Of a stretch of 64,000 nucleotides of DNA, positions 3,213 to 62,100 are shown one piece after another. The notes beneath the pieces were generated by a model that was given only the letters and a program-made list of their open reading frames with translations, did no database searches and had not been told where the DNA came from. The translations under genes were made by a program, and so were the position numbers. Source of the DNA: Amoebophrya sp. A120 (taxonomy: Eukaryota > Protista > Dinoflagellata); contig CAJINV010000012.1 in NCBI GenBank assembly GCA_905178155.1, positions 926,004-990,003 of the forward strand. The letters run 5' to 3'. Positions within the stretch are counted from its first letter, which is position 1; every line of letters begins with the position of its first letter.

Positions 3213-3525
3213 CTCCCTTACCATTTTTTATGCCAGTCCTGTAGTGTATTTAACAGAAAGTGAATCAATCTAGTGGGTGCTAGTCTGGTGTCATATTAAT
3301 TTCAAAAGCAACATCCACGACGTCGACGCCGAACAGTGACTCGCGAGCAACACGATCTCTTCTGCAGCACCGGCAGCGCTACATACTTCTGACTACTCGT
3401 ATTTATTTGGCTGTGGAGATACTATACGTAAGGTTGGAATCGCAGCTGCGGAAGGTGGAGCTCTGCTTCATCCACAACTTCTCGACAGACGACCCATCAT
3501 GATCTTTATCATCTTCAAGCTCCTT

Positions 3526-6500
3526 CTACAAGAAATTCCGTGCGTGTACTTTTTGTGGCTTTGAACGAACTGCATTGTTCTTGATGCACGCCAGTAAGCT
3601 ATCTTGATCTTGCTCCTCTTCTCCGATTTCTTGATCTTGAACGCCATCATGCGTTCCACTACTTTCTCGCTCCAATCCTCGTGTTCGCCCACTTCTGCCT
3701 TCTTCCCTCACCCCAGCTCCCCCGTCCGCCACACGGCCAAAAGTGCTGGCCGTTCCCATCGTCATCCCAATCGCCGGTAAAATCATCCCGAGACCCATCC
3801 CACTCGTGGCTAATGGGTGGATGTTCTGGTACCGGTCGTGGGCGAGCAAGTCGCTCGCCGCGCAGTTCAAGTGCTCGTACGCCCTACTGCCGCCGGACTG
3901 CACGCGGGAGATCTGCGCCGCTTGCTCGATCAGCATATGGGACTCTCAAGCGTTACATTCTCAACTGTTACGTGATTTGTCATGCAAATTTACCACCAAG
4001 ATCGCCGCGATTAAGCTGCTTCGCATGGCAAATCTTCGAAAGGCTAAACAGCATCAAATCTGTGCCAAATCTGTAATGCATAAGGCGCAATCTTCCCCCT
4101 TTCGCTTATTTTACCGCTCTTGCATTACAAATTCATGTAACAGTTGAGAATGTAACACTTGCAAACGCCATACAGCATCCGGGTGTCGTGCACTTTCGCG
4201 TCCATGGTGGTCGCGTCGGAGATCAGAGACTGGAACCACGCTAAAATCGAGGACACCATGAAGGAAAGCCCCGAGGTCGCCTCCGCATTGATGTTGCAAA
4301 TCGCCCGGTTTACCAGCTGCACGGTGTCCACGTCGAGAGCGACTTTGGAGGAGGATTCCGCTTTTTTCAAGTGTTCTAGCGCGTGTTTTAGGTGGAATAT
4401 GGGAGTGTCAGGATTGAAATCAACAATAAAGTTGAAATAGTATGGCTTGGGCAAAACGTTTATTTCGAGAAAGTTCAAAAATTTTTGTATGCATATTCTG
4501 CATGTAGTTAGTGTACGCATTGATTATTAATAATGGAGGATTAACTTGCATGATTGGTTGATTAGCATGACAGAAATGATAGGATAACTAATCTGATATA
4601 GCTAGTTAACCATAAGCTATGTAGCATTGTGGATTCGTGTGGGAACGGTCGCCAAACTCGAGCGGACTCCTCCTCCTCCTCATCGCCAGTTCGGATAGCT
4701 GTTTCTGCGGTTTCTCCATCCCAAGCCACCAAATGAGAGGCAACTGAAGGCACGACGTGCATGAACAGAGCGACCTTGTGCGAATGTGAACGTCCATGCT
4801 GTGCCTGTGAGTAGAGTTTTGAAATAAGATGTTGCGTAGCATGTTCCTGATAGAACAGAATCAATCTAGAAAACATATTGAGAAACAGAAAGAACAAATG
4901 ACGTAAGCTCTAACGTGAGAAAGAGATGTTTTTTTTTCCAGAGAAAGCGCGAGGGCTCACCGATAATTTGTTGCTTTCCCGGGTACAATGCACGAAAGAA
5001 AGAGCGTAGTTGTGATCAGATATCTTCTTGTCATCTTTTCATCTTTCGTCTTTGTTTTTGCTGGTTCAAATGCGTCTTTCCAAAACACAACCGTAGGGCG
5101 AATGATTAAGACGACAACACAGACTAATAAACGAGTGCTACCACAAAATGCGGCTGGTAGCGACGGGTCTCTTATGGCTCGGAGGGCCTACCTCTCCAAT
5201 GACTCCGTGCACGACTGTCGACTTGGTTTCCCTGGGGACCACTGCGACGTGTTCGGTGAACAGCATGGTCGTTGCCGCGTCCGGTAACGGGAAAGACGAC
5301 CCCAATGGTTTCGAGGACCGGTTCCGTAACTCCCTCCGCAACCTGGACCAGGGCGCGTTGCAGATGCGGACTCGTTTGATGCAGGAGCGGTTGGAGATGC
5401 TCGAAGCCATCCAGAATGGCAGTGTCATTCTATGAAAAGCAAACCTCTCTCTGATCATCCTACGTGTAGTTCTTTTGTCATGCTGGGGATGTTGAGTTTG
5501 TGTCTTGCAAGAACATCAAAAGGGCATGACGAGAGAGGTTTTTCCATAGCATAACTCTTGAACGACTTGCCCAACGCCCCCCTCGAACGCGGCATTGGCA
5601 GTACTTCGAGATCTACTCCTTCGAATACATTCCTGCTTTTTGTTTGCTCTGTAGGATGTTACTTGAACTGCAGCATTGATCTATATTTGCATGACAAGTC
5701 TGTATGTGCATTCGATTCAGCACTGTGCGTGTCCCTCAGTGTTGCAGTTCTTATATACATCCCACAACGCAAACAAAAACAGGCTGGCACCAGATTGGGG
5801 TTTCTGAGTGGTGTCGTCTCCTCAGCTGCATCGGTGGAATTCGTCTGTCTGTCTTACAAGCCCGTATTGTGGATGTCTCCCAAATTGAGTGGTTGTTCGA
5901 ACAGTTGGGTCTGTCCTTTCAGTGGCGGGTATAATTCTAACGCTGGTTTTTTGTCATGCAGAAAGGACGTTTTGATCATGCGGATACAGTGCTTTCCATT
6001 CTACCCACACATACACATTTGCACCAGCAAGAGGCACAGTCTTTGCGTTGAGTACGGGCTTGTCAGTACTAATCCATACAAAAATGACAAACAGATTCCC
6101 CGCGTCGATCGCCACCGTTCTCTGCGTATTTGCGCCCAGTTCTTGATCAACGAGCGCTCCCGCCAGGAGTGGCCCCGCCTGATTCAGATGTTGCCCTCCA
6201 AGCAGCAGCTCGACCAGAAGAAGTTGATGTCCATGCTCCCGCAGATGTTCGGTCCGCAGCCCCTCGCCCTCGGAAACGGTGCCTCTTCCAGCAGTTCCTC
6301 CGCGATTCCGATGGGGTATGCGCCCGCCACTCCGCATTCGCCGACGATGAGCCAGGTATCGATGTTTTCATATGATGAGAGTGATGTTTTTTCGTGTGTG
6401 AGACGACGTAATCTTTCCAATATTCGAAAACAGCAAAACTTCGCGCCGCAGGACTACTCGACGCAGGTCCCCACTGGTTCCGGCTCGCACGCGCAGTCCA

Positions 6501-9500
6501 TGTGCGAGCAGTTCATCTTGAGCATGCAGTCGAACGGGAACACGCAACCCGTGACGCAGCCGAACATGAACGGCCCCATCATCGCTCCGCCGCCCCCGGC
6601 TCCCACTTACACGTCCTCATCGTCGCCCCCGCCGACGATCTTTGACACCATGCCCCCCCAGGTACCGCCGCCTGGTACGACATGGGAGGTCGACGACGAA
6701 GGTGACACTGACGTCTACCAGGCCTCTGCCATCGCGGGTCACGGATTGGGCGTGCCCACGACCACCACGTCCTCCACCACCGACTTTTTCTCCCAGTTCT
6801 CTTCGGTGCAGGTCGTGCGCATGGAGTACACCCCGGCGGCCATTGCCGCGGAGCAGGAGGATGCGACCGCGGAGGATTCCGCGCCGAGTGATCAGGTGCG
6901 AATAGATGTTTCTTTGTATGGCAGTCGGTTATCCGCGTTGGTATGCTTCTGTAATGCGAAAGCCATGCTTTACCACCGGCGCATGATCATGTTGCCCGTG
7001 AGCGCCGTTTTTGGTTGAGCTTAATCTTAATGAGCCTGTACATGTATTCGCACAGGAACAAGGACTCATGATCGAGGACCCGGACTACTACGCCGAATTC
7101 GCGGAGGAGGACATCGCGAAGGCCAAGAAGATCCGGCGGGTCGAGGATGAGATCGCGGCCAAGGCGCAAGCCAAGTCCAAATCGAAGGCGAAGCCCAAGG
7201 CCAAGCCGATCCCGCCGAAGAAGCAGGTGTTCGCACCGAAGAAGATGCCCCGCTAGATGTGAGGACCTGTTTTTACGTTTTGTAGAAGCAGTCGACTCAG
7301 ATAGTGACTCGCTTTTGGAAATTTACAACAACGATTTACAACACCAAGAACTTCACAGCTTTGAAATTGCTTTACTTTAGTGAAGAGGAAGCGCACTCAC
7401 GAAACACTACTACCATTGATTTATTAGTTGACGCGGCTGTGCGCAAGATTACTACTGTTTCGGTCTCACAGAACTTACACTGCCCTTCGGGGTTTTTGGC
7501 GATACAAAACACCGCCCATACTAAAAACAATTACGAACTTCGACTGAAGAATACAAATTTTATGCAAAATAAATGCTGTCTTCGATGTCTTTCTTCGTGT
7601 TTTATGTAGAGCGACTATCTCGGAGTACTGTTTGACGAGTTTACCTCTAATAGCATGCGCCGTAGTTCTTATTTGTCTTTCGACAGTAAGACACAGAGAT
7701 CTTCCGGCCTCTTAGTGCCAATTTCCATTGTCAGCGATACAACGACGAGTCACAGGCTAGCAAGCAATGGAAGAGAAAGCAACACTGCTGATGCTTTTGT
7801 CATAGTACATGAACATACATACATGGGACGAGTGTCATAGAAGTGCAAGCTGTTGACTATGTGCTCCCCCGAGTAAACTTGTAAGTGGACTAAGTGGACA
7901 GAAGCAATGGCAAAAATGAAAAAGCACTGACGTAGAACGAAAGTACCTTTGTGCTCATCTGCTGTTCTGCACGTGATTGAACTGAAAACACAAGTCTACG
8001 CGGAATCGGTGTGGTATTATGTCGCGTCGAAAAAGAAGCACTACTCCGCCCGCAACGTCGGTTTTGATTATTTGAAGCGCGGGTCTCTGGGTGGGTTGTC
8101 GGTTGAATGATTTCTATTTGATGTAGATGCGCGCGCACGAATAGAAGAAGTAGTTGATATCCAAGGGGCGAGTGAAGCGCAAACCTGAGTGACTCCGAAA
8201 TTCCACCTACAGGCTCGCTTCACCTCGTAAGAGAGCTTCACCGTAATAGGAAACTCATGTAAACACCGCACACAGAGAGAAGTTGTAGTAGAGACCGAAC
8301 AGGATGAATCTGAACGGCGACAAGGCCGTCGTGAGCGGCCTTTTGGACCGTAACCAGGTCCAGGAGCGCGTGGAGAACCAGAAGTCGAAGACGAAGCGGT
8401 GGGATCACGTAGATCTCGACGGAGTTACCGGTCTTCCGATTTTCTGTATTCGCGGACTCTACCCGAGCCAGGGTGGAGTTGGTGCTTACCAGCACTCGAT
8501 ACCGTTGCGTCTGCGGCAACACCACCTCGTAGCGGACGCAGAGACGTTCACGCCCAAGGCTACCGCGAAGATGGTGGTATAGTTTGAATATCGCGTCTTG
8601 GGTCGTTGTCATGCAGCTATTGCGATGAAGATCATGACGCTCTACTTCATGTTGTGACTGCAATGGTAACCCGTTCTCCAAAAACAGACACACCTCCTTT
8701 ACTACCGCAAGATGGGTATGCACAACGCCGAGTGGACTCAGCTTATTCACGGGTGCGATTTCCGCCACATCATCGCGAATCTTCAGCACGGGAACATGGA
8801 GGACAAAGTGGAGGAGCTGCAGAACTGGTCGAAAAGCAAGCTCTTCAAGTACCGCATGGCAAACCTGGTGGAGAACAAGAAAAAAGAGAAGGTAATACAC
8901 GGTGGAAGTGCTTCACTTAGTTGCTCTTGTAGCGACAGCACTATCATGCAGGAGTAGATCACTACTCCGTCCGATTTAAACACAGCGTGCATTTTACCAC
9001 AATGACATCTTCAATAAAAACAAACTTTTAATGCCAGAAACTCTTCTTGATCGAGCATGGCGAATTCTGCGTCGCGGAGCGTATGCGATTCCGGAAACGG
9101 ACTGGAGCGCATAAGGACATCACCGCATTTACGGGCTGTGATATGAAGCCGCACGGACGCGGCCGGTATTTCCTCCACGATTTCGCCGCCCAACAGAAAA
9201 CGAAATGCTGCGGCACATTCGTATTAATTTTGTTTCATGTGACCACGTGCTCTTCTCATGCAGGCCTGGTTCCTGATGTCATGTGTCGAGTCTTCTTCTC
9301 CAAAAAACTTTCTCAGGTGCAATACACCGACATTGCGGAAGTTGCACCGCTGGCGCACGACGACGCCATCCGCCAGAAAGCGCTTCCACTGCGGAGGTGC
9401 AACACGGACTTGACGAACCCCTCGATTGAGCACGACGCTTCCGCACTGTCGGCTTTGAGTTTTCTCATGCACCTGTGCGAACTTTACGGTCAGGATGCTA

Positions 9501-12500
9501 CTCAGAAGATGTACACTCCGGCCGATACGCACTGGACGGACGTGGCGCTGGATCACTGGGGCGACGGCGACCTACAGCGGAATAAAATCCACATCTTCCC
9601 CATCATGGCATGTGACCAGGGCAGCCCGGAGGTGCGGTGCGCGCAAATCATCTTCACCATGCTGCAAGGCCACTACACCTTCGGACCCGCGCATTTTAGT
9701 AGTAATAGGGTGAAGAACTGCTGTCCCGAGGCGCGGGTGATTGCTGCCATGATCCGCAAGATGGAGCGTGGTCCATTTGGGACCTGCGAAAATCAGGGGA
9801 AGCTGAAAGGCGCTCTCGCATTTGCGCAGCAAGAATCAGTGCATCTCAAGGAGGACGCGAAAAAGCGACCACACGCTGATCAGCTGGTCGATGCGATGGA
9901 CGCGGCGGATCTGGAAGAGGCGCTGAAGATGATCAGTATTTTTTGCTGCTGCTTTCCAATGATGATCCTTCTAGACCTGCTGCGGAATCTCGTTACTTTG
10001 TGTCTAGTTTTCATCCCCCTCGTCAGGTGCCCCGGTTTAGTCCGCAATAATCTCACCATACCATCGCGCTTCATCCCCCTGGTGATCCCCATCGAGATCC
10101 CCATCAAGATCCCAACTTTTTATGCCCCCCCCCGGGACCCCTCGCGATCCCCCTTGAGTTCTGAATAGAATTTCTTCAACGTGTGGCTTTTCTGCAGCAA
10201 GTCGTCATGTCAGAATGTGCTTAATTCTCAGCCCGGTCGTAATTCTCGTTTGTCGTTGAAGCGGCGTTTTTATTTCCAACATATGAACATCAGATGTCTC
10301 CGGCTTTCATGGGACCGAATGCCGGTGGCGCCGCTTGATGATCACGATTGTATGATATGGAAAAGCGCTTTCCTCGTGGTTCAAGCAAACGAAAATGTAA
10401 TGCGTCAACACTGCAAATTTTATCAAGTTTTGTCATGCGGGGAAAGATCTGTTTTTCCATTTCATAAAGGCTGATGATGTTGAGCAAGAAGCAGCGGGCT
10501 CCGATGAAGTACTTGACGAAGTTTTTGTCTGACACCGAATACCACGATCCGAAGAAAATCTCCAATGAGGAGAAAAAGCGCATCGCGGCTAGCCGCTCGG
10601 GAGTCGCCTCGTATCAACCGAAGGAGGGAGCTATCGATATTGACGATAAGGATGAGGACGCGGAGGACAAGGACTCCGGCTGCCCGGCACAGTACAAGGG
10701 AACCGCAAAACCACTGCACGACAAGTTGTCCAAGATGGAGTTGTGCAAGATGCGGTGCGGATACGACCTCTGCAAGCCCGCCTGGGACTACTTCAACTGG
10801 TTGCGGATGTTTCATCAAAACAGCGCGAAGAACGGCTTGCGGATTTCCGATCCGATCTTTCAGAACTTGTCCAAAATGTTCGTCGGGTGGAACTGCGATT
10901 TCTTCGACAAAGACCACTACTCTCCAGTCGAATTCAATACACTGCAGGCCGTGTACCGCAGCAGAACCTGGCGTGTCCAGTTCTACGAAACAATCAAAAC
11001 GCTCCGGAAGTCGAAGTTGCACCGTGAGCGTGGCTTCCCGGTGATCAACAGAATCATCCTCAAATGGTACGAGGAAAACATGGACTTGCAGTTCGGCGTC
11101 TGGGAGCAGATGGCCAACAAAAAAATGACCATCCAGCTCGCCGACATGGAGCGGGTTTTCGAAGCGGCTTCGTTTCCGATCTCGGCTTCCGCGAAAACGG
11201 CGATGCAGGCGTGGCACCAAAACAAGTGCAATCTGGTCGAGGATTTCGCTTTCGAAAGTAACGCCCCGAAGAGTGCGATGGAAGAGGATGCGGAACAGCA
11301 GTTCAAAATGACGCACTACATGAAAACGATGGCGGACCCGGGGGAGAACTGTATGTGGCGCCGACAGTGCCAGCGGGCGATTGCCATCCAGCACCACGGT
11401 CATTTTTTACCGCCGTTGCGGCTCAAGCAGGCCGGCACAATCAACGATCTACCAGCGGAGGACTACGCGAAGATCTTCTGCATCTCCCGCAACCTGCATG
11501 GCGGTAACGCCCCCGGAAACAATTGCAACGAGGTGCATGTCAACAACACCCGCCAGGAGAAGGCTACCCATGCTGGTACGGAGGATAAATTCCACACCAA
11601 GCGGCTCACCGAGATGCTCCTCCAGCTGGAAACGTTGTACAAAAACCGCAGGTCGCTGCAGTTTCCCGCTACGCAGATCATCCAGCCCATGTACAACAAG
11701 GACTTGGGAGTCAAGGGCGCCACGACGTTGGGCTACCGCGGCGGGGAGGTGGAGGCGATCATCGACGGGGGGATTTCTTCCCAACACGAGCGAAAAGCGC
11801 ACGAGCGGTGCTCCGTGACTTTCTGGCATTCCGCCGACATGGCGCAGAAACTGCAGGAAGAGGGTTGTTTAATCGTCCAGCACATGGTGACGCACAGGCA
11901 CGGCGCTGTTACGGGGCAACACCTCGGAAAGGCCGTCGGTTTTTACCTCATCATCTGCCCGCACACGGAGAAACTGAAGGCCTTCGCTCCGGATGAGTTG
12001 CACGAGTCCCGGTTTTTCTGCGCCGCGCCGTCGCAGCTGCGGTGGTTAGACGCGAAATTCTTGGCGCCGGACATGTGTGAGTGCCCGCTCTATTTCGAGA
12101 TTCCGATGGGACCATGGATCGAGCCAGTCGACATCGTTCTGGAGAAGTTCCTCGACCTCACCGTCGACGAACAGTACGCGCTGACGAAGGACACCGTCAA
12201 AGAATTCCCCAAGTTGTCGAAGTTTTACTGGTCGCGGATGCCGGAGACGGCGCGGAAGAAGGCGTATCGCTACGCCTACGAAGGCGGGTTTGCGCAGCGA
12301 CACATGGACGAGATCGAGAAGAGGTGCAAACCGAAACTGATCATATTCGGCAAGGACGGCGACGAGTTCCGGCGGGAGCAGCAGCAGAACAAGGTGGACG
12401 AGTTAGCCGAACAAGCTGCCAATGATAAGCGGGTGCACCAGGAACAGGTGAATAAGCGGGACTCGATGACACCAATGCAAAAATCACTACTATCTCATCT

Positions 12501-15500
12501 CGTTTTGTATTGCGCAAAATCACGCATGACAAAATGCATGACAAGAAAAGTTCTTCACTCAAAGCTCCGTGCTGTTTTTGCATGACAAATATGAAAATGC
12601 AAAACGAGAAGAGATGGTAGTCGTTTTTGATGTGATAGCCCGACGGCAAGACAAACAATCACACCCGGCTGCCGGCGCAGAAGGTCATCAAGTACTACGG
12701 CAAGGTCGAGGGAAAGACGAAATTGTTAGCGGAGGTCCGGCCAACGCGCTCGTCTGCCCACATGGACGACATTTTGCGGCTGCGGTGGCCGACGGATCAC
12801 GTCGTGAGATCCGCCATCAAGTACGCAACCGCGCCCAGCAAGCCCGACGCCATGGCGAACGCCGAGAGCCTGCTGTTGCCCAAAGTGTTGACGTCGTACG
12901 GCTTGCTGAGGTCGCAGGTAACAGTCGAAGTCGATAAGTGGGAGGAAGTGGACTATGACGTGTATGGTTTTGATGATTACGGATACCGAATCCGCGAACC
13001 GCCGGCAAGCAGCAGCTCCAAACCGACCGGGTTGAGCGACAACGTGAACAACCGGAACAAGCGGAATTCTTTGGGTGGTGATGCTGAGTTTCTGGATGAT
13101 GGTGATACTAAGAAGAAGCAGAGAAAAGGTTAGGTCGTCAGCATATGTCTACTTGATTCAGTATTGGTCTCCATGTTTCTTTACACAATTACTACAGTGA
13201 AAAACATATTTATACACGCGAGTAAGTACGATGAAACTATATCAGTGATCATGAAGAGACAGACCCAACAGCCACTACCTTTCCCTCCTTTTTCAGGAGG
13301 AATTTTCATCAGGATTCACGATAATACTCATTGCTGCACTCCAGCAATGGGAAAATTTAGAAATCGCCTATCTGTGAATAGGTTAACAAAATTCAAACTG
13401 CAGCTGTGCAGTTTATAAAAATTTGATTACACAAAAGATGAAAAGTATGGAAGTGCTGTCGAAGAACGACAGCAATGCAAATTATTAAAAAATACAATTG
13501 AAAAGATAGTGAAATAGTAAAGAAAAGAAGCACTATCAGACATTACCCGAAGGCGCGCCACATCTATCCGAAAAGTGCAAAACTTTTCGTGATGAAAAAT
13601 TAATTTTTGTATACCTTTCGATTTATTTTCCCACCGGTACTACTTGTAATAAGTCACACCATCAAAACTGCTCTCATTCTGACCGGGCCCTTGCTCTGGA
13701 GCTGGAGCTTGTGCTGTTAGTGTTGTCTATTTTCCGCTTTTTCGGTGCAGATTTTGCCAGTTCCGGGTCGGTTTGTTGTGTTGCTGTCGTTTGCGAAGTG
13801 TCGGCTGTGTCGGTTGTCGCGTTCAGGACCAATAGGATTTGGTCAGCAATCCGATCGGCAGGTACGAACCAACTCTCGAGCCACGTCCTGCGCGGCTTTT
13901 TAATCTCGGTCATCAGCGCCGGGTAGGCTGCCAAGGTAGTTGTCCCGAACTCCCTGTGGATGGATAGAAGTACTCGGTTGAAAACGAAACCCAATAGATG
14001 GTCGCGCTTGCACATGAATAAGCTGCACATTACTGCTACGCATCACAAGTTTCAACATTGTTGTAGTTTTTCTGTCATTTCTACTTCTGCTCTACTGTCC
14101 TGGCACGATGTAGAACCACGCCCACCCTAGAAGCACGCTATTTATACTTATCCGGTTCGTAGATAAATCCATGCTTCCGCAGCTCTTCCCACGGGATGAG
14201 TGCGCTGCTCTTCAAGGGCTTCCCGTAAAGGTGCCTCTCGTCGAAGGATCGCGCGTGCAACAGCAAGAAGTCCGCGTCATCAACGCGGTAACATTCTCCG
14301 TTGGCTCTGTGTTATGTGTTGTTGCTGTATTCAAAGCGAATAGCGAGGCCGGCTATGGGAGCGGTACACAATGGCGTCGGGCAGTTGAAAAAGTACAAAA
14401 ATGCCTTGTCATCTTGCAGCGCAAGGCGATCGGCTCTCCCTTCCGGTCTGTGCGCCACACCAAGTTCTTCTCCTGCACGCGATAGAGAGTTCCATCAGGA
14501 TCGCCTCTCTTGACGATGCACCGATCAAACCCGCCGTATTCTCGTTCGGGGGTAACGTACTGCAATCCACTACCGCGGAGCTGGTGCTCAAAGTAATCAC
14601 GAGAATCCGCCTCCCTCAAGGTAGCCGCACTGTAAACGTGCGCCCTTGGGTCAAAGGGAGCCAACAAATGCGGACGTGATTGGAGCAGGTTCTGGAGGTG
14701 TGCCACGAGGTTGGCTGGCGGTATGTTTTCGCTTGGGTCGTTCAGTGAGTAGCCGTCGTAATCCCGTTGTCTATGGACAATGTGAACGAAAACGTCGGCC
14801 GCGTCGTCGCTCGTGATACCAATAAGAGTGAAGTTGTGCCAGGCACTCTTGTGCCCGTTTAGTGCGAGTCTGATCTTTCGCTCCCAGGCGTCGGCTCTGG
14901 AACTGCCACCCTTGATCTGCACCGTGGCCCAGAGCTCCACCGTGTTCAAATTTTGCGTAAAAGTGTCGTCCTTATTTGCCACTAGGACGTCACTACTTAA
15001 CTCGTGGGTTCGTCGGACGATGAAATGCTGCTCCAATAAGCGAATAAATTCACTAACGCTTTTGTCCTCCGCGTTCTTTGGAATGCTGCCCATCAAACAG
15101 CTGCACGACGTTCAGATGCAAACAAAATCAACAACGTACAGCCTCAAGCGTGACCTAAATCAGAGTGAGAGAAAGTATGTGGCTCAGAGTAGTCCTCCGG
15201 GTGGGGTGTTTCTAAATCAGCCTACTATGATCACCAAATCTCAGGGCCCTGCGATGTTCATTCCCATCACGTAGTAAACGCCTACCCTTATTGGTATAGT
15301 ATCAGACCACTCCCTCTACGTTCTTGCGCATCACATTCATTGCAATACTAGACCGATGGGCCATTTCTGTGTTGTTGTTGACATTGATTCATCTGATAGG
15401 ACCGATCCAGTAGTGTCGCGTAGAGCTAGCATCAAAAACATGGCCTCCGTCGCCGATCTTCGACTTGTCTCGCCGCCGTTCCGACACGAATCCACAATGC

Positions 15501-16015
15501 TACATAGCTTATGGTTAACTAGCTAACTCAGATAAGACTATTATAGTTCAAGCATAATCAAGCTGCATGACCAATCAGTTTGGTAGCTAAACATGCACTG
15601 GAGTACTACCATAGAACATAATATGAAACATGCATACAAAAATTTTTGAACTTTCTCGAAATAAACGTTTTGCCCAAGCCATAAATAGTAACTTGTAATG
15701 CATAAAATCGCTACCAGCTGGAAGCCCACTTTCCCAGCGGTGCATGACAAATCTCGGCACCGCCTAAATCCAGTTTGTCATGCTGTTTAGGCACAGAAGG
15801 CGTCTTTTGTCGTGCTACTTTAGCAGCTCTATCGTAGACCCCAAACAGGGTGGCAGTAGGCCTCACTTGCCATCTCTGCAAGAGAGGCACTTCGTGCCTT
15901 ACAGTTTATGCATGAGAAATTATTTCAACTCTGTCGATTTCAATCCTGACCCTTCCATATGGGACTGGAGAAAAATCGTGTCCGGCTGTCCGCATTCCAC
16001 GACTTTCACCGGCAT
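3526..16015 (-). CDS. Hypothetical host protein (~226 aa) whose first intron contains the 11.2-kb transposon
   Basis: Exons 16015-15960, 4392-4173 and 3930-3526 total 681 nt and join in frame: MPVKVVECGQPDTIFLQSH|LKHALEHLKKAESS...HDTRML|IEQAAQISRVQ. The C-terminal frame is less certain. Confidence 0.7.
3936..4172. mobile_element. Introner, TIR family III (237 bp)
   Basis: TIRs tatgggactctcaagcgttacattctcaactgttac / gtaacagttgagaatgtaacacttgcaaacgccata. TSD CAGCA at 3931-3935 and 4173-4177. Removal restores the ORF. Confidence 0.92.
5148..7256 (+). CDS. Transposon accessory gene A: Pro/Ser-rich protein with a Lys-rich C-terminus, function unknown
   Basis: Coding-like exons at about 5148-5418, 6094-6355, 6434-6895 and 7056-7256, bounded by G(T/C)..AG sites (ccag|gtatc, aacag|caaaac, tcag|gtgcg, cacag|gaacaa). 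How exon 1 links to the rest is uncertain. Confidence 0.6.
8304..13133 (+). CDS. Candidate divergent DDE transposase, multi-exon, more than 1200 aa
   Basis: Phase-0 GT-AG introns 8577-8711 and 8892-9037 join the first ORFs. Further exons at about 9038-9930, 10470-12447 and 12639-13133; exons between 9930 and 10470 are unresolved. Motifs CNTDLT (D 9407), IMACDQGS (D 9614), FGPAH (H 9692) and NCNEVHVNNTR (E 11530) resemble the D...D..xxH...E layout of P/hAT-like transposases. The function is inferred. Confidence 0.6.
13674..15096 (-). CDS. Tandem PD-(D/E)XK-like nuclease with a C-terminal NLS-like motif (5' end may extend upstream)
   Basis: Two D...QxK motifs (SDVLVAN...VQIK; FDRCIV...RVQEK). 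GC-AG intron 14404-14307 and GT-AG intron 14147-13954 join in frame to CYRVDDADFLLLH...LIPWEELRKHG and EFGTTTLAAYP...PKKRKI. Confidence 0.62.
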
Positions 16016-16559
16016 AGTTGAAGATTTCGTGTGTAATTATTCTTGTCCAATCACGAGGAGTGAGGTTGTAATTCTGATTTCAAATTTCCTGTCGAGCAGG
16101 AGCTCCACCACGTTGAGCAAAAAGCTGAAGGCTGACTGAAGCTAAGTCACGATTTTGTGTAATCGGTCCTGCTGTCCAGAGCAACAGTAGCAGCGAAAAC
16201 GATTTCGATTTCGATCTGAACGACAACGATAAAAAGTGCGATGTCGATGAATTTCTCGACGACCAAAGCAAAATGCTTCTTGTACTTACAACTAGAAGAG
16301 GACAGGCGCGAAAAGTATGACGACGAACATCTTTCTACAGCACTCCAAATAACTCGGGCCCGTTTATTTTGCGACTGCGACAAGAAGAACATATTTCAGA
16401 TACAAATTTCAGTACAGGAACCACCTGATGCACAGCAAGATGGACCTGTTACCACGGTAGATGCGATGAAAGCGGTCGGGCTTCGCACCGCCCCAGCAGT
16501 AGACAATCTTGATCCCACTGGAAAACGCTCTCCATCAATTATCTGTCGCTTTATTTATC

Positions 16560-17812
16560 TTAATCTTTCGCGAATACCCATCTGGCGCTTCCAAACTCGA
16601 CAATCGTCTTTCCGGAAAACGTGTGTCCCTCCGCCGCGAGTTTCTTTTTCTGAAGTAGAGCTGCCGACATGGTGCCTTCGCCCCCTCCTCCTGCGTTCTC
16701 ATCCCCGCCGGCAGACTTTGCTTTGCTTGAGCTTGGCTTGTCCTTTGCCGCCTTGATGTCTTTGCTGGTTTTATTGTTTTTGTCATTGGACTTCCGAACC
16801 GATTTTTCTACCTTCATCTTCTTGTTCTCAGCGGACGAAGTTGCTATCGCCTTGCCCTTCACCTTCTCCGCCTCCCTGACCTTCTCATCCACCACCGCGC
16901 CGCCCTTCAATGAGATTCCGCCGCTGCTGTTCACACACCGCCACCAGGGCACGTCGTTCACATCGCAGTCCCGCATGTATGAAATGCAAAAGTGTCTGGG
17001 TCTGGAAGAGTGTGAACTTGTCATGCAGGTTTTCCATGACTCTTGAGGTCTGGAATGCGGCACCTAGCACGACAGAGTCTGCGACGTCTCTTTCATGCCT
17101 ATCCTGCATGAGAAACTCCCTCCCAACTTGGTCGAAAGTGGACAGCTACTTTTGGCACTCATGCAACACAGACTTTTGCATGGTTCGGATTTAGTATGAC
17201 AAGTTGCAATCTTCCAGACCCAGACATTTTTGCAATCCATAGCATGGCGAATCCGACGTGTCTCGCGTGGTTGGGGAGTTTGAGCGCGACGGCAACGTCC
17301 TTGTAGGTGGTAACTTTTCCAGCGGGGACTATGACTTGCTCAAGCGTTACAATCTCAAACGTTACAATAGAATCTGGAATTTGTGTTGCATGATGAGCAT
17401 GACAGACTCGCACAGCGCTCCACCTTTTGCAATACAAATTTCGCCAGATTGTAGTGGTTTTTGGGGCTCCGGAACTTGTCATGCGCAATCCTATGAGGGT
17501 TGGCTAGATCCTGCACTCTTGCATCACAGATTTCCATATTATATTGCAAACGTTTGAGATTGTAACACCTGAGCGGGTTATAGGGACCTGCTTCACTTTC
17601 TCGTACACGAGTTGAGGGAAGAGCTTCCTGGGAGGGGAGGAGCTTCTATTCTGCATCTTCCCGTTCTGCTGTTTATTTTGGTCGTGACGCTCTTGATTTA
17701 TTTTGGGAGTACTAGTGGTGGTGGTGGTTTTCCGCTTTTCAGTAGTGTTTTTCGAAGAAGACGAGGAGGAGCTGGGCGCTGAGGTCGAAATGGACGAGGA
17801 GAATATTGCCAT
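16560..17812 (-). CDS. Alkyltransferase-like (ATL/Atl1, MGMT family) DNA-damage-binding protein (~241 aa)
   Basis: Exons 17812-17583, 17324-17242 and 16972-16560 (726 nt) give VYEKVKQVPAGKVTTYKDVA...ARHVGFAM...DVPWWRCVNSSGGIS...KKLAAEG. Trp occupies the MGMT catalytic Cys position (PWxR), as in ATL proteins. Confidence 0.88.
16978..17241. mobile_element. Introner, TIR family I (264 bp)
   Basis: TIRs tatgaaatgcaaaagtgtctgggtctggaag / cttccagacccagacatttttgcaatccata. TSD GCATG. Removal restores HVGFAM|RDCD. Confidence 0.95.
17330..17582. mobile_element. Introner, TIR family II (253 bp)
   Basis: TIRs tatgacttgctcaagcgttacaatctcaaacg / cgtttgagattgtaacacctgagcgggttata. TSD GGGAC. Removal restores KQVP|AGKV. 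Confidence 0.95.
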
Positions 17813-18566
17813 AGTTGATTTCAATGCGGTTGCTTCGTTGCTTTCTTAATGGTCTGCGTGAGAAGAAAGAAAGATCATATTCTAGGAAGGCTCGACAAAG
17901 TACTAGCAGAGCAGTGAGGACACGACCAGTCGGGAATGAATCAACTAGGCAAGGTCGCGGTACTGCAACGAACCTTCTCGCAGTCGTTTGGTAAGTACAT
18001 TCCGCTCAAGACTGAAACTGCAGCTACGGTCTACAACTTCAAAGAGAACACATCAAAGCGAAACAACGTGAACTTCTTTCGCAGCAGCCAGCAGCCTGCT
18101 CATCAAGAAACACTAAAGATTGTGAGGATGTTGATGTTCATCATTTTACTACGTGTCGATAGCTTTGTCGCTGAAGTTTCGTCCAAATAAAGAACTTATT
18201 TGTCATTTGATTTTGCATCAGTCTGCAAAAATTCTGTTCGCTTGTGCTTGATCTTCCCGATGAAGATGTTGCTTTCATCAACTTGTTCGACGGAGATTAC
18301 CACCGAAGCGGATGCAGAAACAGCAGTATAATTTGCTGCTCGTCCGCGTCAGCATGCAGACGACGGCTCCTTGTTATTCCTTGCTTCAGCTTCCCCCAGC
18401 GATTCCCAGCGTCTCTCTGAGCAAAACACACGACCAGTCGCTCCTCGTCATACGCCGAGGTCGTCTGCTTTTTTTTGCAACCACCGAAAAGCAAGTGTGC
18501 AGGAACGTAATATACGAACTTTTTCGGGCTGCACGAAGATGTTCTTCTTCTGCTTCTTCAACACTC

Positions 18567-22145: not shown

Positions 22146-24065
22146 TCAGGCAAACGTGGTAATCAAATTTTTCCCGTATTCAACCATCACCCTGTCCATG
22201 TTTTTTCGCATGTTTGCCACTTGAGTTATCAAATGCAAAAATGTCTGGGTCTGGAAACTTGTGATGCTGGGTGGCGTATCATGAGGAGGCCACAAGTGCT
22301 CGCTCAGCATGACAAGTTTCTGAGCTTCTAGGTGTTGCCTATTCTGCATGACAAACTGCGTTTCTACATGACAGAAAAATGGCGCTCTTGGGTAACGTAC
22401 ATGACAGATTTGAGAGTCATGCCAGAGTAGCATGACAAACATGCACTGTTCCAGACCCAGACATTTTTACACTTGATATGAATCAGATTTTGATGATTCC
22501 TCATGTTTGACAACGAAGTGGTGTTGGTCAAGCCAGTGTAAGCAGATGACAAAGCATCAGCAGACAGAAAGCCGCCAGAACTCATTGTCGTATAATTCCC
22601 ACTGGCGTTCCGCATCACAATCTTTGACACCGTCTCCGCCGGATTTGCCGTCTTCACCCAGTACCCGTGCAATGTGTTCCGTTCGAAAAACGGAAAAAAG
22701 TCGAGTTTCAGAGGCTGCCAGACTTCATTGGACGATGAGAATTGGTTGTTGTCATCGAGCGTGGGGGAATCGGATTCGGACATGGAGGAACTGGACGCGG
22801 AGCTGAGAGCCCGTAAATGCCCGCCCGTCGTGTAATCGATAACGTGCCCGTATTTCGTCATTGTAGTGGAGGAGGAAGAGCCGGTACCTGTTATTTTCAG
22901 TGGGTAAAACTTATACGTCGACAAGTTCAACAAAAAACGTACAACTACCTAGCCATCAAGTGAATGTGGACCTTGAAATATTCACATGACAATCAAATGC
23001 TTGTGCCTGATGAAACTCCGCATCCGCAGTGGAAAGGAACATTGAATGCGTCAGCTATCTATCTCTTTGTAAACACATCTATATACCGTGGTCCATCTCC
23101 CCGGTAATGCTTTTCCTAACCGGCGGCAAGCTGACGCTGAGCAGTGCCCGCAAGCAAGCCAACGCACACGTTTCCGACAATAACCCCGGGCCGTAGGCGG
23201 AAGCACTAGAAGACGACATTGAATCGCTACTCGCCGCATGATTGTAGTGAATGACGCAGACCTTCAGCGTGAAGTGCCAATAGCACTTTTTCTCCTCGAC
23301 TGTGATCGTGTTTTTGTTCAAAATCTCTTTCGACTGAAACAGTTTGCGCAGCTGGTCGCACAGGGTCAGATTCCCGAAATCCTGCGGTCGGTAGTTTTGA
23401 GGTTGATGTTGGTGAGCAGCGGTGGAAGAGGAAGACGCTGCCACACCTGGTCCTCGTCCCATGGGACTACATCCATGATCCTCCTGTTCCTGCAACAATA
23501 ATTTCGCGACCTGTTCCGGGCTTCCTCTAACCGTCTGCTGCGGTGCTCCTGTGCCTGTTGTCTCGATTTTCCGCCTCTTCTGCACGTGCTCGGCGATCAC
23601 TTGCTCTGGTGTTTTATTGACGCCCACAGACGCGTCAGACGTGCCTGATGTGTTTCCTGCGTGCTCCATGGCGAACGATCTTGTCCCGCCGTCAGTCATA
23701 TTTGCTGCTCTTCGTTTACTCTCTTCATATTCCGCGCTTCCCATCTTTTGGAATCTTCTGCTCCGAAACGGGTCCTCTGAGCTGTACTTTGGGAGTTCGT
23801 CGACGTAAATCTCCAAGTCCCGGGGAAAATCTTCCACCAAATTCCCCTCGACAATACATGCGACCTGCGTGTTATGGTACCACACGAGGGCGGACCCGAG
23901 GCTCTGGCTGTGGAAACCCACTTGCACCGTCGGGGACAGGATCTCCGTGCTGTCGGTCAGGGAGTTATCATTTTCGTCGTTTCCATGTTTATCTATTTCT
24001 CCGGGTGGGCTCTGGATGTTGATGACAGCATCCCCATTCTCCTCGAAGTCCACCTCCATGGTCAT
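22146..24065 (-). CDS. Hypothetical multi-exon protein
   Basis: ORF 23079-24107, a probable GT-AG intron (about 22950-23120), an exon of about 22948-22479, introner 22227-22478, and a last exon ending at TGA 22146. The junction NLIQ|VANMRK is in frame. Confidence 0.6.
22227..22478. mobile_element. Introner, TIR family I (252 bp)
   Basis: TIRs tatcaaatgcaaaaatgtctgggtctggaa / ttccagacccagacatttttacacttgata. TSD TGAGT/TGAAT (4 of 5 match). Confidence 0.9.
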
Positions 24066-25042: not shown

Positions 25043-28000
25043 CTATCGAAACGCCCCACCACTGCCATTCCCTCCACCTCCGACTCCACGACGTCCGAAA
25101 TCTGTTCGCCTTACCACGCGCTCAAAATTATTTAAGTTAAAATACATCCGACGCGGGTGCCAGGAATTTGTGTTGCTATGGTAGGGATTGTTGTGTACAA
25201 CTGAGTTGCTAGTTCTATTGTGGTCTATCTGAGATGAGGAACTATTGTTCGGCGGTCCAGGACCACTTATGTTATACCCACCTGCCCCCGTGCTATCTTC
25301 TATCTTCATCTTCTTACTCAGGTAATATTCCTCCGCGTGCCTGTATCCGTACTGTCTTCTCAACAGCGACAAACAGCAGCCGCACAGCAGTCTTTTCACC
25401 ACGAAGTTCAGTAGGAGTTTCCGGATGAGCAATTGGTACAAGGTCAGAACCAAAGGTTGGAAGAAGCTTTCCCAAAAGGGGATGACTGTCGTGAAAACTT
25501 TTTCCAAAAAGTTTTTCTTCCGCCACCTTTTTGCACTCGCCGCCGCGCTGATCTTCCGCGACAACCCCGTTCCGCTTCCGTGCTGAAAGATCAAGCCAAC
25601 GTCCTCCTCGTCGTCGTCCGTTTGGTTCAAAACAAAGTTTTCGATCATATCAATTGTAAAAGTGTCTGGGTCTGGAATGTTGCCAAGTTTATCATGCATA
25701 TTTTGCATGACCCAGGATGTCTGTAATGCACGGCCTAGCATCACAGATTTTTAGAGGGCTTCCTGATGCCTACTCCGCATGCCAAATGCCCTCCCCGCGT
25801 AGCACAAACTAGACTCCTCTTGCTGGTCATGCAATACGGATTTTTTTAGAATCCAAACGCAGCATCACAAGTTCCAACTTTCCAGACCCAGACATTTTTG
25901 CAATCCATAGATCACAACTTTCAACACTTCTTGCAGAATTTCCTCCACCCCCAGCCAGTACCAAATGCGGCTGAAGCAGGATTTCTTCCGGTTTTTGTAC
26001 TATGACCTGCTCAAACGTTACAATCCCAAGCGTTACAATAGAATTTGGAAATCTGTGATGCAAGAAGTGCATGATCTAGCCAAGTTTCATAGGATTACGC
26101 ATGACAAGTTCCGGAGTCCCAAACCGCACTACAGTCTGCCAGTGCCAGTATTTGTGCTGCATAAAGTGGAATGGTCTGCGAGTCTGTCATGCTCATTATG
26201 CGAGACAAGTCCCAGATTCTATTGTAACGTTTGATATTGTAACGTTTGAGCAGGTCATATGTACGCCAGGTGTTTCCTGTGCTCGAAGTTGTTCTGGAAG
26301 TTATCTTCCGGAAACCTCGGCTTTTGTACTAGATTCTGGTCCACCCGGCTGATTTCCTTAAATTTCGCGTGAAACAGCACCGCCGGGACCTTGAACGTAC
26401 CGTCGGGGAAGCACCACTTCTTGAACTGTTTCTTTTTGAACTCCAGCTCCTTCGCGCGGAGTTCGATTTCCTTCTTCAGTGAAGTGCGGCGCTCCGATAT
26501 CCACAGTAAATTTCCCGTACACGTACACATGCGGTCTCTGCATGAAAGAACTTGGCTTCCATCCTAGTCTAGCATGACAAGTTTTCGGCTTTAAATTGGT
26601 GAAATTTGTGATGCATCTTGTACATGTACGGAAAATTTGTATTGCGTATCCGACTCCAGCATGACGGAAACGTAATTGATCGTGCGGAGTTCCTCTTGCT
26701 TCAGATTCAACTCCGACTGCAGCTGTGTCAATTCCTGCACCGTGATAAACCGATTCTCGATCTGGTCGCTGCCGATCATGGTGTTTGCTGATGTCGTTCT
26801 TGATGTGCTATCAGAAGTTGTACTCGCCGGTCCTAAAAGTTGTGATCCGCCCTTAATATTTTGCTGCTGCTGCTGTTTCAGCGATTGCTCCTCTTGTTCC
26901 GCGGCTGTCAGCTGCACCGTTTTCACGGCCGGGCACACGTAGCTGCACACTTCCGTGATCGTTTTCCCGCTGTACTGATCGACCGCTATCAAATGCAAAA
27001 ATGTCTGGGTCTGGGAGGTTGCCGGGTTTGTCATGCATATTTTGCATGACCAATCGCGCCTGTAGTGCATGACTTAGCATCACAGATTTTTGGAAGGCTT
27101 TCTGATGCCTATTCCGCATGACAAATGTCCTCTCCGCGTAGCACAATCCGGGCTCCTCTTGTTGGTCCTGCAATACAGATTTTTTTAGAGTCCAAAGACA
27201 GCATGACAAGTTTGGATCCTTCCAGACCCAGACATATTTGCAATGCATAACCGCTAGAACCGAACAGTTGATCAGAAACAGCTCCCGCAGTCCGAGGTTC
27301 TTTTCGTGCAGGGGAGAGGCTTCGTTGATGATGTGCTTGATCGTCAGAATGCCGCCGTTCGGGCTGTGCACCGTGAGCATCGTATGGAAGTGTCAGGTTT
27401 GAAATCGTCAAAGTTGAAATAGTTTGTCATGCATAAAGCGGAGACCAGTTGGAAGACCAATTTCCAAGCGGCGCATGACAAATTTTCTGAGCACCGAAAT
27501 CCAATCTGTCATGCTGTTTGGGCACAGAAGAGTGCTTTTGTCATGCTCCTTTAGCAGCTCTATCCCAAACCCTAAATAGGCTCGAAATCTGCCTCACTTG
27601 CAATCCCTGCAAGACAGTCTTTTCGTGCTTTGCATTTTATGCATCACAGATTCTTTCAACTTTGTCGATTTCAATCCTGACACATCCATACATCGGGAGA
27701 AGTTGGTATTGCGCCGGGTGGTATCAAATGCAAAAGTGTCTGGGTCTGGAATAGTGGAACTTGTGATGCGTGTCTTGCATTCCTGGAAAATCTGTGTTGC
27801 ATGAGCAGCAAAAGAGGAGCTTGCTTTGTCATGCAAAAACGCAATTTGTAATGCGTGGTAGGCATCAGCAGGCCTCTCTAAAACTTGTCATGCCTGGCTG
27901 CCATTAATACAAGCGCTTCAATCATGCTCAATTCAGCATCACAGATTTCCAGACCCAGACATATTTGCAGTGCATAGGTGGTCCTGTAAAAGTTGGTCGA

Positions 28001-59100: not shown

Positions 59101-62100
59101 CATTCCCTTCTCTAGATTGGCGGCCGCCTCGCCCATGAAGGCGGGTATTTGTACACGAAGATCTTGTGGTGTGGCACTGGCGGCATCACCCGCAGCCTCA
59201 AGCTGAGCAGGGCTGCTCGTCTCCGTCTGCGTCTCGTCTTTTCGCTTGCTAGTAGAGCTGTGCGAAGGTGACACCGGCAAAGGTCCATCATCTCCTCCAC
59301 CTCGTTCTTGTAGCACGGGTTCATCGTGTGCGACTTCGTTGTCTCTTGGATTTAGGCAATGTGGGAAGCCCTTTTTCCACATGTCGCGAATTTGCACAGA
59401 CAAGCCCACGAACATCGCGGCAATGCAGCAAGACGTCACAACGGTCGCAACTTCGATCCCAGTCAAGAATCATAGCGAAAAATGCCCCAAGGCGATCCCG
59501 AGTTGTGCAACGAAGATTCAATTGTTCCCGTAGCCGTGCCCGTTCTCGTATCCGACACAACAACACAGTACAAAAATAATTTACGAGTAACTCATCCTCT
59601 TCAGGAGGGCAAAACTTCGTCACGGAAAAAAAATCATATCAAGCGCACCAGCCTGGATGTTGTCTAGCAGTGGTAGCGCCGCGGTCGCGCTTGCATGTCG
59701 TGGCACTACATTCGTATAGAGGATCCATATATACAAGGTATTTCCCTCGCCTGAGGTCGGGCTGAGAGCATCCACGGCAGCAGCCGCGCCACCGACGTGA
59801 GGCAACAGCGGAAGCACTGCCATCGAGCGTTGAGTAGAACTCCAACTTTTTTTGTGTCACAACTACAAGACTATGGCCACCATTTTCTTGCCTTCCACTC
59901 ATCTTCGAGTATCAGTGTACTTGGTACTATGATGACATCACAATGCGGACGAAGCTGTAGCTTCACTTCCTTCTAGTTCTTGCATACTACGAATTGAAAT
60001 CGTGGTCATAACATTTCTTCTTGAGCCTGCTATAGGTCATCACCTTGAGACATGTTTCCATGTGGTACGGTTTTGGTCTGTACGATTTTGGTCTTTGTAG
60101 CAACATGGAGAAGCGAGGACCCCGACTGTGTCGTGTTGAACTTCCTGCGTTGCGCGAGCTCCTGGAAGTCTTGGTGTTGGTGTAGGGCTTCATTATCCTG
60201 ATATGGAAAGAAAGATGCTCCTCACCACCGTCTTCACTCACTATGCTTATTCAGCAGGTTTTGCATGAGAAGTTCTTCCTTCGGATCGGGGCTTTTAGTT
60301 TAATCTTGTATATTAATATTGTATTGTAATTGCACAAACAAATAAAGGGCGCTCGCCTGTGAAATAATTCGACGCTGTTGTCTTGCAGGATTGCCGGTAA
60401 ATGACCGTGGCGAAGTTGTCTTGTTTTATACCGGATCCGGCATTTCCACTAGCGCGTTATTACTCTCCCCTGACGCAACCATGGCAACGTCTTCGGCATT
60501 TATGGAAGTTTAAGTGTCGAAATCAACAAAATGAAAATATTCGCGCGTCATGATGCGGAAAACCCATGCAAGCAGTTGGTGTGCCGTTTCTGAGCGGCGC
60601 ACGAAAAGTTTTTGCGGCACGTGACAGCAGTTTGTCGAGCTAGTTGGCGCAAAAGCAACAACACAGGGCGCGCTCTATTTAGCAGCCACGTTCTCGCCAC
60701 TGTGAAGCTTAATACACGCGGCCAGCTCATAAATTTGTCTGCTATCCAACACAAGCATTCTACTGTAATATGTAGCATTTCATGCATCACAAAGCATTTT
60801 GATTTTCGCTTTGTCGCTTTCCGAGTCGACGCTCTCATATCGTGACGATCCTCGTCCGCGGTAGTAACGGTATCCGGCTGCCGCAGCACTGGCGGCAGGT
60901 CACGGTCATCCTTGGTGTGCCAATCTTCAACACGATAATTGTCGCGGTTTTTATTCTGCGGTCGGTAAAATCCTTCTTGCTTTTTTGATGTTTCCCTGGT
61001 CTCACTGTCGCTTTTTTGATGTTCCATCAACGTCTCCCGGTAGTACGGGGCAGCTGCCAGTTGTGGCGGAGCTTCTGTTCTTGCGGCGGTCGGCAACTGT
61101 TGTGTATGTCGGGCGACGACGTTCTTGGCCCCCCCTGGCGGCCGCGCACATGCTGGAGTACCTTGTCCTTCTATGAGAGTGTCAGGCCTGAAATCGACAA
61201 AGTTGAAATAACTTGCAATGCATAAAATCGATATCAGTTGGAAGCCCAATTTTCAAGCGCTGCATGACAAATTTCGGCCACGTCTAAATCCAGTTTGTCA
61301 TGATGTCATGTTTTGGGACAGAAGGCGTCTTTTGTCATGCTACTTCAGCAGCTCTACCGCAGACCCCAAACAGGCTGACAGTCGGCCTCACTTGCTGCCC
61401 CTGCAAGAGAGGCACTTCATGCCTTGCAATTTATGCATGAGAAACCATTTCAACTTTAGCGATTTCAGTCCTGACGCTTCCATACCTTCTCCACAAGTCG
61501 TAGAAGATCTGGCGTCGAGAGTCTTTTCCGGCTTCATCTCGTACTCGTTTGCTGTAGTGCCGGGACTAGAAGTTGAGTTCTTCGCGGAGACTGAAGTTGT
61601 AGACGGCATGTTGACCACCACGACAGGGCCAACCGGTGGCGCCGAGACAACGTCAGGAGTTCCGAACCAGAAGTCCTCCGCACGGAAAGAACCAAAAATG
61701 GAAGAAAGCACGCTTGATCCAGGACCCGCGTGGTTGACGAGACGCCCAACGTACATCACGAGCAAAAAAATCCCAGCAAGCAACAAGGACAGCATGAAGA
61801 AGGACAAAGAACTGTAGTGCGGGCTGGTCAGCGGCCCACACCGCTGCTTTGTCGGTCCTCCGACGTCACTCCTTCCCGCACAAAAACCCCTTCTGCGCAC
61901 TTTATTCCGCTTTTGTGACCGCGAAGCTGACACTGGGAGGTTTGCTGGAGAAGGAGAAAAAACAAAAAGTCCGGGACACCGCGAAAAAAAAGTGGGCGAT
62001 TCAGATTCTTGTTCACCATCTTTATCATCATCAACTGCAGCCCGCCCAAAATGATTCTCGTAACTTGAACTTCTCTTGTTTGTGCTGACGCCAAGACAAC

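Follow-up and report, generated by a model that had tools for sequence, protein, structure and literature searches.

Structure of the locus

The window analysed here is the whole 64,000-nucleotide stretch of contig CAJINV010000012.1 from the dinoflagellate Amoebophrya sp. A120. It contains a host gene on the minus strand whose first intron consists of an introner with a transposon inside it, the latter bounded by terminal inverted repeats (TIRs). The host gene has 227 codons and, as an earlier note on this DNA had proposed, an intact reading frame around the nest. Exon 1 (15960..16130) carries the ATG at 16015 and a 5' untranslated region that extends to at least 16130 in contigs of the runs X4, X5, and X6; an in-frame stop lies nine codons upstream of the ATG. 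Exon 2 spans 4173..4392 and exon 3 spans 3400..3930, with the stop codon at 3526-3528. Intron 1 (4393..15959) is 11,567 nt long, is not of the GT-AG type, and comprises the outer introner, the inner transposon, and one target copy. Intron 2 (3931..4172) is a 237-bp introner with TAT ends plus one CAGCA copy. A Pfam search with the 227-residue protein gave no match with a meaningful E-value, and no relative of the host exon was found among metagenome contigs.

The outer introner is split into two parts. Its left 43 bp (4398..4440) are preceded by one copy of the outer target duplication, TGGAA (4393..4397, plus strand), which agrees in four of five positions with TGGGA at 15960-15964, the copy retained within host exon 1. 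Its right 271 bp occupy 15689..15959. Between the two lies the inner transposon (4441..15683), an element of 11,243 bp with the termini TATGG..CCATA and imperfect TIRs of about 200 bp. The first 25 nt of the TIRs are identical (25/25), and the arms agree at 98% over 57 nt and at 89% over 70 nt. The insertion point lies 43 bp inside the outer introner, with a copy of AATAG on either side, at 4436-4440 within the left part and at 15684..15688 (plus strand) on the right. This duplication is exact at 5 bp and matches in only two of six positions when it is extended to six.

Removal of 4441-15683 plus one AATAG rebuilds, as had been claimed, an introner of 314 bp that can be aligned to an intact sister of 313 bp at 61172..61484 (target duplication CCTTC; 268 of 319 alignment columns). 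The rebuilt introner also resembles a second intact sister of 308 bp at 27383..27690 (target duplication CATCG; 249/314) and is thus a member of a repeated family. Its inverted repeat starts with TAT and joins the 5' and 3' ends of the intron, and its arm shows a very high summed contig depth in the DNA run X1. The earlier note also held that loss of the introner restores the host frame. The frame does return, but removal of 4398-15959 alone (11,562 nt) leaves it disrupted; the reading MPVKVVECGQPDTIFLQSH|LKHALEH requires the loss of 11,567 nt, that is, the element together with one of the two imperfectly matching 5-bp copies at its borders.

The inner element has TAT ends and a 5-bp duplication, as do the small introners of the window. 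When elements were required to have TAT[GC] ends, to mismatch at no more than 6 of 20 TIR nucleotides, and to carry a perfect duplication of 5 bp, 13 were found in the window and none in each of 20 shuffled windows. When the list was extended by hand to 18 TAT-ended elements, the 5-bp duplication was exact in 14, matched at 4/5 in three, and matched at 2/5 in one, and an exact duplication of 6 or 8 bp was present in none of the 18. Introners cover 4,637 of the 52,752 bp (8.8%) that make up the window minus the insert.

The nest itself is real. At near identity, the inner element is single-copy in DNA run X1, where one contig of 10,903 nt (4611-15513) passes through its interior at a depth of 23.8 compared with 26-28 on the flanks, and further contigs cross both nest borders without branching (4132-4470 and 15921-17004). 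The unbranched borders and the near-flank depth indicate that the nested allele is the only one in X1 and that the element has no second copy of near identity there, at the resolution of assembled contigs, which drop rare variants. A joint 4426->15690 in X1 was considered as an empty site and rejected; it reflects paralogous introner copies (a side of 21 letters, with other letters between). Transposons within introns are commonplace, whereas the non-canonical removal of 11,567 nt and a candidate autonomous transposase are not.

Removal of the giant intron from host transcripts

According to the earlier note, the host would have to splice a non-GT-AG intron of about 11.6 kb, visible as a junction between 15960 and 4392. 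Contigs that join the two exons in this way are present in all four RNA-like runs examined (X3 to X6, from two samples of study P2; contigs give no abundance). Position 4392 is followed directly by 15960, 11,567 nt are skipped, and no possible register of the cut has GT-AG ends. In X6, a single contig of 927 nt runs over both host introns (depth 22.8, a side of 171 letters). The junction contig of X4 is 869 nt long with a depth of 11.7, and the junction has a side of 154 letters in X5 and of 27 letters in X3. The exon pieces of these contigs have no mismatches to the window in any of the four runs. As an internal control, the second introner (242 nt) is skipped likewise in X3, X4, and X6 (joint 3930->4173). 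RNA-like cover is almost absent from the interior of the element. Run X9 covers host exon 3 only, and X13, a set of raw reads under the same species label, contributed 10 partial reads over introners only and is uninformative on the junction; together with X1 and X3 to X6, these make up the seven runs examined out of 15.

One contig of X3 (4366-4538) links exon 2, by way of the 43-bp arm, to the inner element, and the X3 sample therefore carries the nest. This contig ends 98 nt into the inner TIR, and nothing further in is covered; it may represent pre-mRNA or the start of a transcript at the transposon end.

Host mRNA is very probably spliced from the nested allele, and it is very likely that an intron with TAT ends is removed here at approximately 40 times the usual length. 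Several points weigh against this interpretation. X4, X5, and X6, which have at least 31 letters on each side of the junction, come from a single sample that did not itself show the nest, and the nest-bearing sample X3 bridges the junction with 27 letters only. All four junction runs belong to one study, and their 'RNA' label is a guess made by the tool. The 27 letters of X3 plus 3 ambiguous ones would add up to 30, the overlap to be expected where the graph branches.

The spliced contigs could instead come from another allele or a subclone that lacks the inner element or even the nest as a whole, in which case the nested allele would be poorly spliced or dead. The equal depth of the spliced and unspliced branches in X3 (6.9 vs 6.8), a sample (S3) that shows no nest junction, and the different study codes of the RNA and DNA runs are compatible with such a mixture. 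We consider it improbable, since X1 is unbranched at both junctions, the exon pieces match the window perfectly in four runs, and the unspliced X3 contig stops after 98 nt before a bare interior, unlike a retained intron. Trans-splicing would dispense with an 11.6-kb pre-mRNA altogether: an RNA that ends in the right TIR arms would pair with one that starts in the left inner TIR. The X3 contig 4366-4538 starts within the inner TIR with nothing covered beyond, a gene of the inner element (gene C, see below) has the orientation of the host gene and might terminate host transcription, and pairing of the arms is predicted to exceed 160 bp. However, contigs cannot reveal starts or ends, a contig of this type appears in one of four runs only, and pre-mRNA accounts for it equally well, which makes this route distinctly improbable. 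An artefact is also conceivable, as direct repeats next to a strong stem provide the setting in which reverse transcriptase may switch templates, here between the 5-nt repeats at the base of a long hairpin. Such 'falsitrons' are present in cDNA and absent from direct RNA (PMC8240250). This explanation is very improbable, because the almost bare interior, compared with an exon depth of 7-23, indicates that unspliced RNA does not predominate; moreover, the junction restores a frame of 227 codons, and the neighbouring 242-nt introner is skipped in the same manner.

Splice register and recognition of the intron

The cut can slide by 0-3 nt, which gives the intron ends TA..CA, AT..CC, CA..TC, or CC..TT, none of them GT/GC-AG. 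Registers shifted by 4 or 5 nt, or by 1 nt in the opposite direction, do not reproduce the contig. Because the outer duplication is imperfect, only these four registers fit the junction contig; the mismatch provides a diagnostic base, and that of the 5' copy is kept in the mRNA. In the large introner family 2, the commonest 5' dinucleotides are GT, CT, AT, and TT (Gozashti et al., PMC12130899). By analogy, the register that begins one base before TAT would be favoured. Imperfect duplications are also found at the introners 22227-22478, 44263-44677, and 49702-50027, of which the first two might likewise serve to pin down the register of the cut.

The outer introner inserted into coding sequence with a 5-bp duplication, and the inner element inserted into the introner, also with a 5-bp duplication. 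In the pre-mRNA, the inverted ends may pair. When the arms are co-folded, a stem of 38 pairs is predicted (15960-15921 with 4397-4439), which runs directly into 58 pairs between the inner TIRs and then into a further helix of 53 pairs. In this prediction, the insertion kept the outer terminal stem and lengthened it. The paired ends would present the junction whatever lies between, and the mRNA would keep one target copy with the frame restored, as is seen in the contigs. On the strength of the folding model, we lean slightly towards end pairing as the feature that defines the intron.

Removal could proceed in one step at the outer ends or inside out, with the inner element first, and the two routes yield identical mRNA. 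The inner element has the end signature of an introner, and its loss together with one AATAG leaves an ordinary introner; for this reason, the inside-out route gives the same product. With TAT ends and a 5-bp duplication, the inner element may be spliceable by itself. The joint of an inner-first intermediate (4440->15689) is not among the three joints listed, and contigs cannot show absence. Both routes excise more than 11 kb bounded by TAT ends, and this speaks for independence from length. The proposal of the earlier note that end pairing acts at any length thus stands as far as length is concerned, while pairing as the cause is a prediction. Its suggestion that introners serve as safe landing sites finds no backing. 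The nest is a single case, the inner element is itself introner-ended, and introners make up about 9% of the window, so that a hit inside one needs no targeting.

A 9-mer, GCATGACAA/TTGTCATGC, occurs 37 times in the window, in 12 of the 16 small introners and eight times in the inner element. Some copies lie near predicted 3' splice sites, and the motif is also visible in the independent contig L001 described below. It is possibly a shared splicing or binding signal.

Genes of the inner element

Gene B (8304..13133, plus strand) is a predicted seven-exon gene for a hAT-like DDE transposase of 1,275 amino acids (aa), with no internal stop and six predicted introns of the GT/GC-AG type. Its conserved residues are, in order, D207, D335, H361, R452-W453, and E727; their assignment to motifs is based on order and secondary structure. 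A HMMER scan with the longest exon returned 13 matches, 12 of which form one family (E 1e-18 to 2e-5, 15-18% identity); P0002 was dropped as a repeat protein. Among ten relatives that were looked up, eight are labelled Amoebophrya and two are nameless. None carries a functional name, and no Pfam family was found for the relatives. Conversely, a profile of 16 family members recovered three gene B exons from 1,632 window segments (E 5e-72, 2e-36, and 8e-17), and the HGT..RW block predicted from the family was located in a 56-nt exon at 10294-10349. The five motifs are complete and ordered in 6/15 proteins and the E is present in 15/15, with most misses due to N-terminally short models. The spacing between D335 and H361 is 26 in all seven proteins that match both patterns. 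A reading of gene B as Transib/RAG, based on the motifs CGYD and NEVHVNNTR, was dropped, as these motifs are not conserved in the relatives.

The hAT-like reading was recorded ahead of folding. An AlphaFold model of the relative P0014, built with 16 alignment rows, has a predicted local distance difference test score (pLDDT) of 71. In an exhaustive VIA fold search with this model, Hermes ranked first among 48,161 chains (Z 7.2, root mean square deviation 5.2), with 307 aligned residues between positions 2-570 of the model and 168-609 of Hermes; ISCth4 ranked 20th. A second look with the same model, and hence not independent, again placed Hermes first (Z 6.6, next 4.6). The C-terminal beta domains of the family (residues 700-810 and 928-1019 of model m75d07d10d356) lie outside the Hermes match; they give KOW/SH3-like matches (Z ~5) and include a second small domain.

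A number of observations speak against a hAT-like assignment. The Hermes Z of 7.2 falls inside the stated background of the tool (7-8), and the folded protein is a relative whose residues 1-57, which hold the first D, have a pLDDT below 50; the fold alone is therefore no proof. The motif patterns were written with the alignment already seen. Foldseek found nothing at E<=0.001 in the PDB with the P0014 model, and sequence searches of Pfam and the PDB gave no match for gene B. Other searches were negative as well: Pfam found nothing in 14 open reading frames, ESM Atlas gave no usable match for gene B, and a word-based homology search with exon 6 gave none, although the family alignment gained one protein by such searches. 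A single-sequence fold reached a pLDDT of 34. Taking the prediction, its span, and its context (TIRs and target duplication) together, we consider it highly probable that gene B encodes a DDE transposase.

RNA-like contigs of X6 match short stretches of gene B at 11616 and 8870 and then diverge. The contig at 11616 continues with a TATGAC start, which hints at an expressed paralogue that carries an introner. Short inverted repeats at 12478-12629, in a predicted GT-AG intron of gene B, and at 5632-5783 are possibly decayed introners.

Gene C (14138..15093, minus strand) is predicted to have two exons and to encode about 285 aa; it lies on the strand of the host gene. Two D..Q.K motifs, seen by eye, resemble the D..(E/Q)xK pattern of PD-(D/E)XK nucleases. 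ESM Atlas features relate the protein at 0.92 to clusters with DUF4365 on 20-39% of their members, and neither a Pfam match nor a word-based homology match was obtained. A PD-(D/E)XK-like nuclease is a lead suggested by the motifs and the clusters. The 3' part of gene A (6097..7256, plus strand) encodes about 308 aa, is rich in proline, and has a basic tail; its start was not found.

Possible role of the gene B family in introner mobility

Our overall reading is that an 11.2-kb element with a predicted hAT-like gene lies within an introner, is absent from transcripts, and is likely an autonomous relative of introners; we assign it a probability of about 0.6. The gene B protein, with RNase H-type D, D, H, RW, and E residues and a helical insertion, would cut and paste TAT-ended elements and would make 5-bp duplications. 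Members of its family may thereby spread short introners as passengers similar to miniature inverted-repeat transposable elements, and the gene C nuclease might, speculatively, help in end cleavage. That the gene B family, and not necessarily this copy, mobilises TAT introners seems somewhat more plausible than the opposite. The inner element and the introners have the same terminal trinucleotide and duplication length, and the independent contig L001 carries both a member of the gene B family (E 1.6e-60 and 3e-32) and TAT-ended elements. A fuller version remains tentative: gene B would represent an unrecognised Amoebophrya-specific hAT-like lineage with a PD-(D/E)XK partner, would drive the TAT introners, and would have ends that are spliced at any length, possibly inside out.

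Two elements of L001 extend the picture. A TAT-ended element of 1,409 bp (424-1832) lies in a coding region with an exact CAAGA duplication. Removal of the element plus 5 nt restores the frame, and several inverted-repeat elements lie inside it, which suggests that nesting is common. At 5330-5463, a TAT-ended element of 134 bp interrupts the gene B relative itself.

The inner element may, on the other hand, be a passenger only, with ends that are alike by ancestry or chance, an insertion that is merely tolerated, and introners that are moved by another enzyme, for example that of the integrase-like, Ginger-like elements that Gozashti et al. have proposed. The facts that weigh against a driving role of gene B favour this explanation. 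Among the points against such a role is that gene B is almost without RNA cover. The inner element and the small introners have no internal sequence in common, and their TIRs are alike mainly over the first 4-5 nt; beyond TATG, the TIR best matches one introner family at 13/21 (p 0.0006, uncorrected for 34 comparisons). Seven of the ten gene B relatives looked up come from strain AT5, in which 99.98% of the introns are reported to be canonical (PMC7789003), and the family can therefore exist without introners. In addition, A120 introner family 38 ('5-bp TSD, TA/TA termini') is filed as Ginger in supplement file 8 of PMC12130899. The text of that paper, however, denies family 38 Ginger homology, termini, and target site duplications (TSDs), and the supplement leaves 56 of 58 A120 families without a superfamily. 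Together with the likeness of termini and 5-bp duplication in 14/18 elements and the second co-occurrence of a family member with TAT elements in L001, this leads us to regard a mere passenger as unlikely and to retain the autonomous introner relative as the preferred reading.

Other features of the window

Upstream of the host gene, a minus-strand gene at 16450-17900 has a weak match (E 0.035) to PF01035, an alkyltransferase-like DNA-binding family. It is interrupted by two introners, both of which are skipped in contigs of X4. The region 33000-60000 is a tandem array of duplicated 7-8.7-kb units (blocks 72-84% identical) that encode low-complexity, host-like proteins. The repeats at 33-60 kb were considered as copies of the inner element and rejected, as the array of host-like genes is unrelated to it.

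Significance

Amoebophrya introners pose two questions, namely which agent moves them and by what means they are spliced in the absence of GT-AG ends and of a recognisable U1. For the former, the locus supplies an apparently intact candidate enzyme with matching ends that can be tested in vitro and searched for genome-wide. If the reading is correct, the gene B family would be the autonomous driver that has so far been missing for the tens of thousands of TAT introners. For the latter, the locus is a natural splicing experiment, in which a segment approximately 40 times as long as the usual intron is excised precisely and only 43 bp of the left arm are still in their original place. The non-canonical splicing of the host would then remove even an 11-kb multi-gene transposon, possibly as a transposon twintron.

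Comparison with known systems

Introners of the A120 type are described as having inverted repeats that start with TAT and direct repeats of 3-5 nt, and as forming non-canonical introns with an average of 240 nt (PMC7789003). Farhat et al. 2021 analysed only introns of 40-1000 nt; they described introners as lacking transposase genes and found transposases only in A25 and none in A120, on which ground they ruled out general transposase-mediated mobilisation (PMC7789003). The present locus resembles these introners in its TAT inverted ends, its short direct repeat at the exon border, its non-GT-AG splicing, and its members of ~240-310 nt. It differs in an intron of 11,567 nt with a probable transposase gene. 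The absence of an internal transposase gene, one criterion for an introner, holds for the rebuilt 314 bp and not for the nest, which contains gene B.

Autonomous introners have been reported in other species (Gozashti et al. 2025, PMC12130899), and the concept is therefore already known. The same paper describes A120 family 38 as an element of ~810 bp with Copia/Gypsy-like fragments, tentatively assigned to Ginger and without a full transposase; like the inner element, it has a 5-bp TSD and TA/TA termini and is a TIR DNA element that acts as an intron. Alignment coordinates in the table of Gozashti et al. reach 24 kb, and long members may thus have been seen without comment. In our literature search, no autonomous Amoebophrya introner transposon, no TAT intron above 10 kb, and no account of the gene B family was found; Repbase and most subscription journals lay outside its scope.

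In hAT transposases, the DDE core is split by an insertion domain, and a CxxH histidine and a tryptophan (Trp319 in Hermes) are characteristic (PMC4763223). The gene B family has the order D, D, H, RW, E, and its best fold match, at a Z within the background range, is Hermes; by analogy, the inner element may work like a hAT, an element that moves by cut-and-paste with a hairpin on the flanking DNA. Typical hATs have 8-bp TSDs and TIRs of 5-27 bp and are shorter than 4 kb (PMC3517528), whereas hAT5, placed among animal hATs, makes 5-bp TSDs (PMC12730594). The 5-bp duplication of the inner element fails the usual 8 bp and fits hAT5. Unlike hATs, the inner element has a length of 11,243 bp, a TIR of at least 57 bp, and extra genes including a nuclease-like one, and gene B has 1,275 aa with extra C-terminal domains and no sequence or Pfam similarity and no BED finger match (Pfam, PDB). 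The histidine of gene B is present but no C/D lies at the CxxH position, which also counts against a hAT-like assignment.

IS3EU elements have the termini TAYGG..CCRTA, TIRs longer than 30 bp, and 6-bp TSDs (PMC12730594). The TATGG..CCATA ends of the inner element, its TIR of 57 bp, and its second gene in opposite orientation agree with this, but its duplication is of 5 bp and not 6. The IS3EU transposase has a core of the IS3/integrase type, which the spacing of ~390 aa between the second D and the E of gene B and the Hermes match do not seem to fit. Because several membership features fail, we file the inner element neither as hAT nor as IS3EU. Transib elements have a 5-bp TSD and CAC termini; the duplication of the inner element agrees with the former, whereas its TAT termini do not agree with the latter.

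Twintrons and stwintrons are introns inside introns; in a twintron, the inner intron leaves first and the outer one is thereby rebuilt, and stwintrons consist of nested GT-AG introns in which a splice signal is split. The nest would likewise be an intron within an intron, but both of its layers are TIR elements. The nonconventional introns of euglenids are paired by TIRs, are non-canonical, and reach several thousand nt (PMC11282704), and the intron described here is like them a TIR-ended non-canonical intron of great length.

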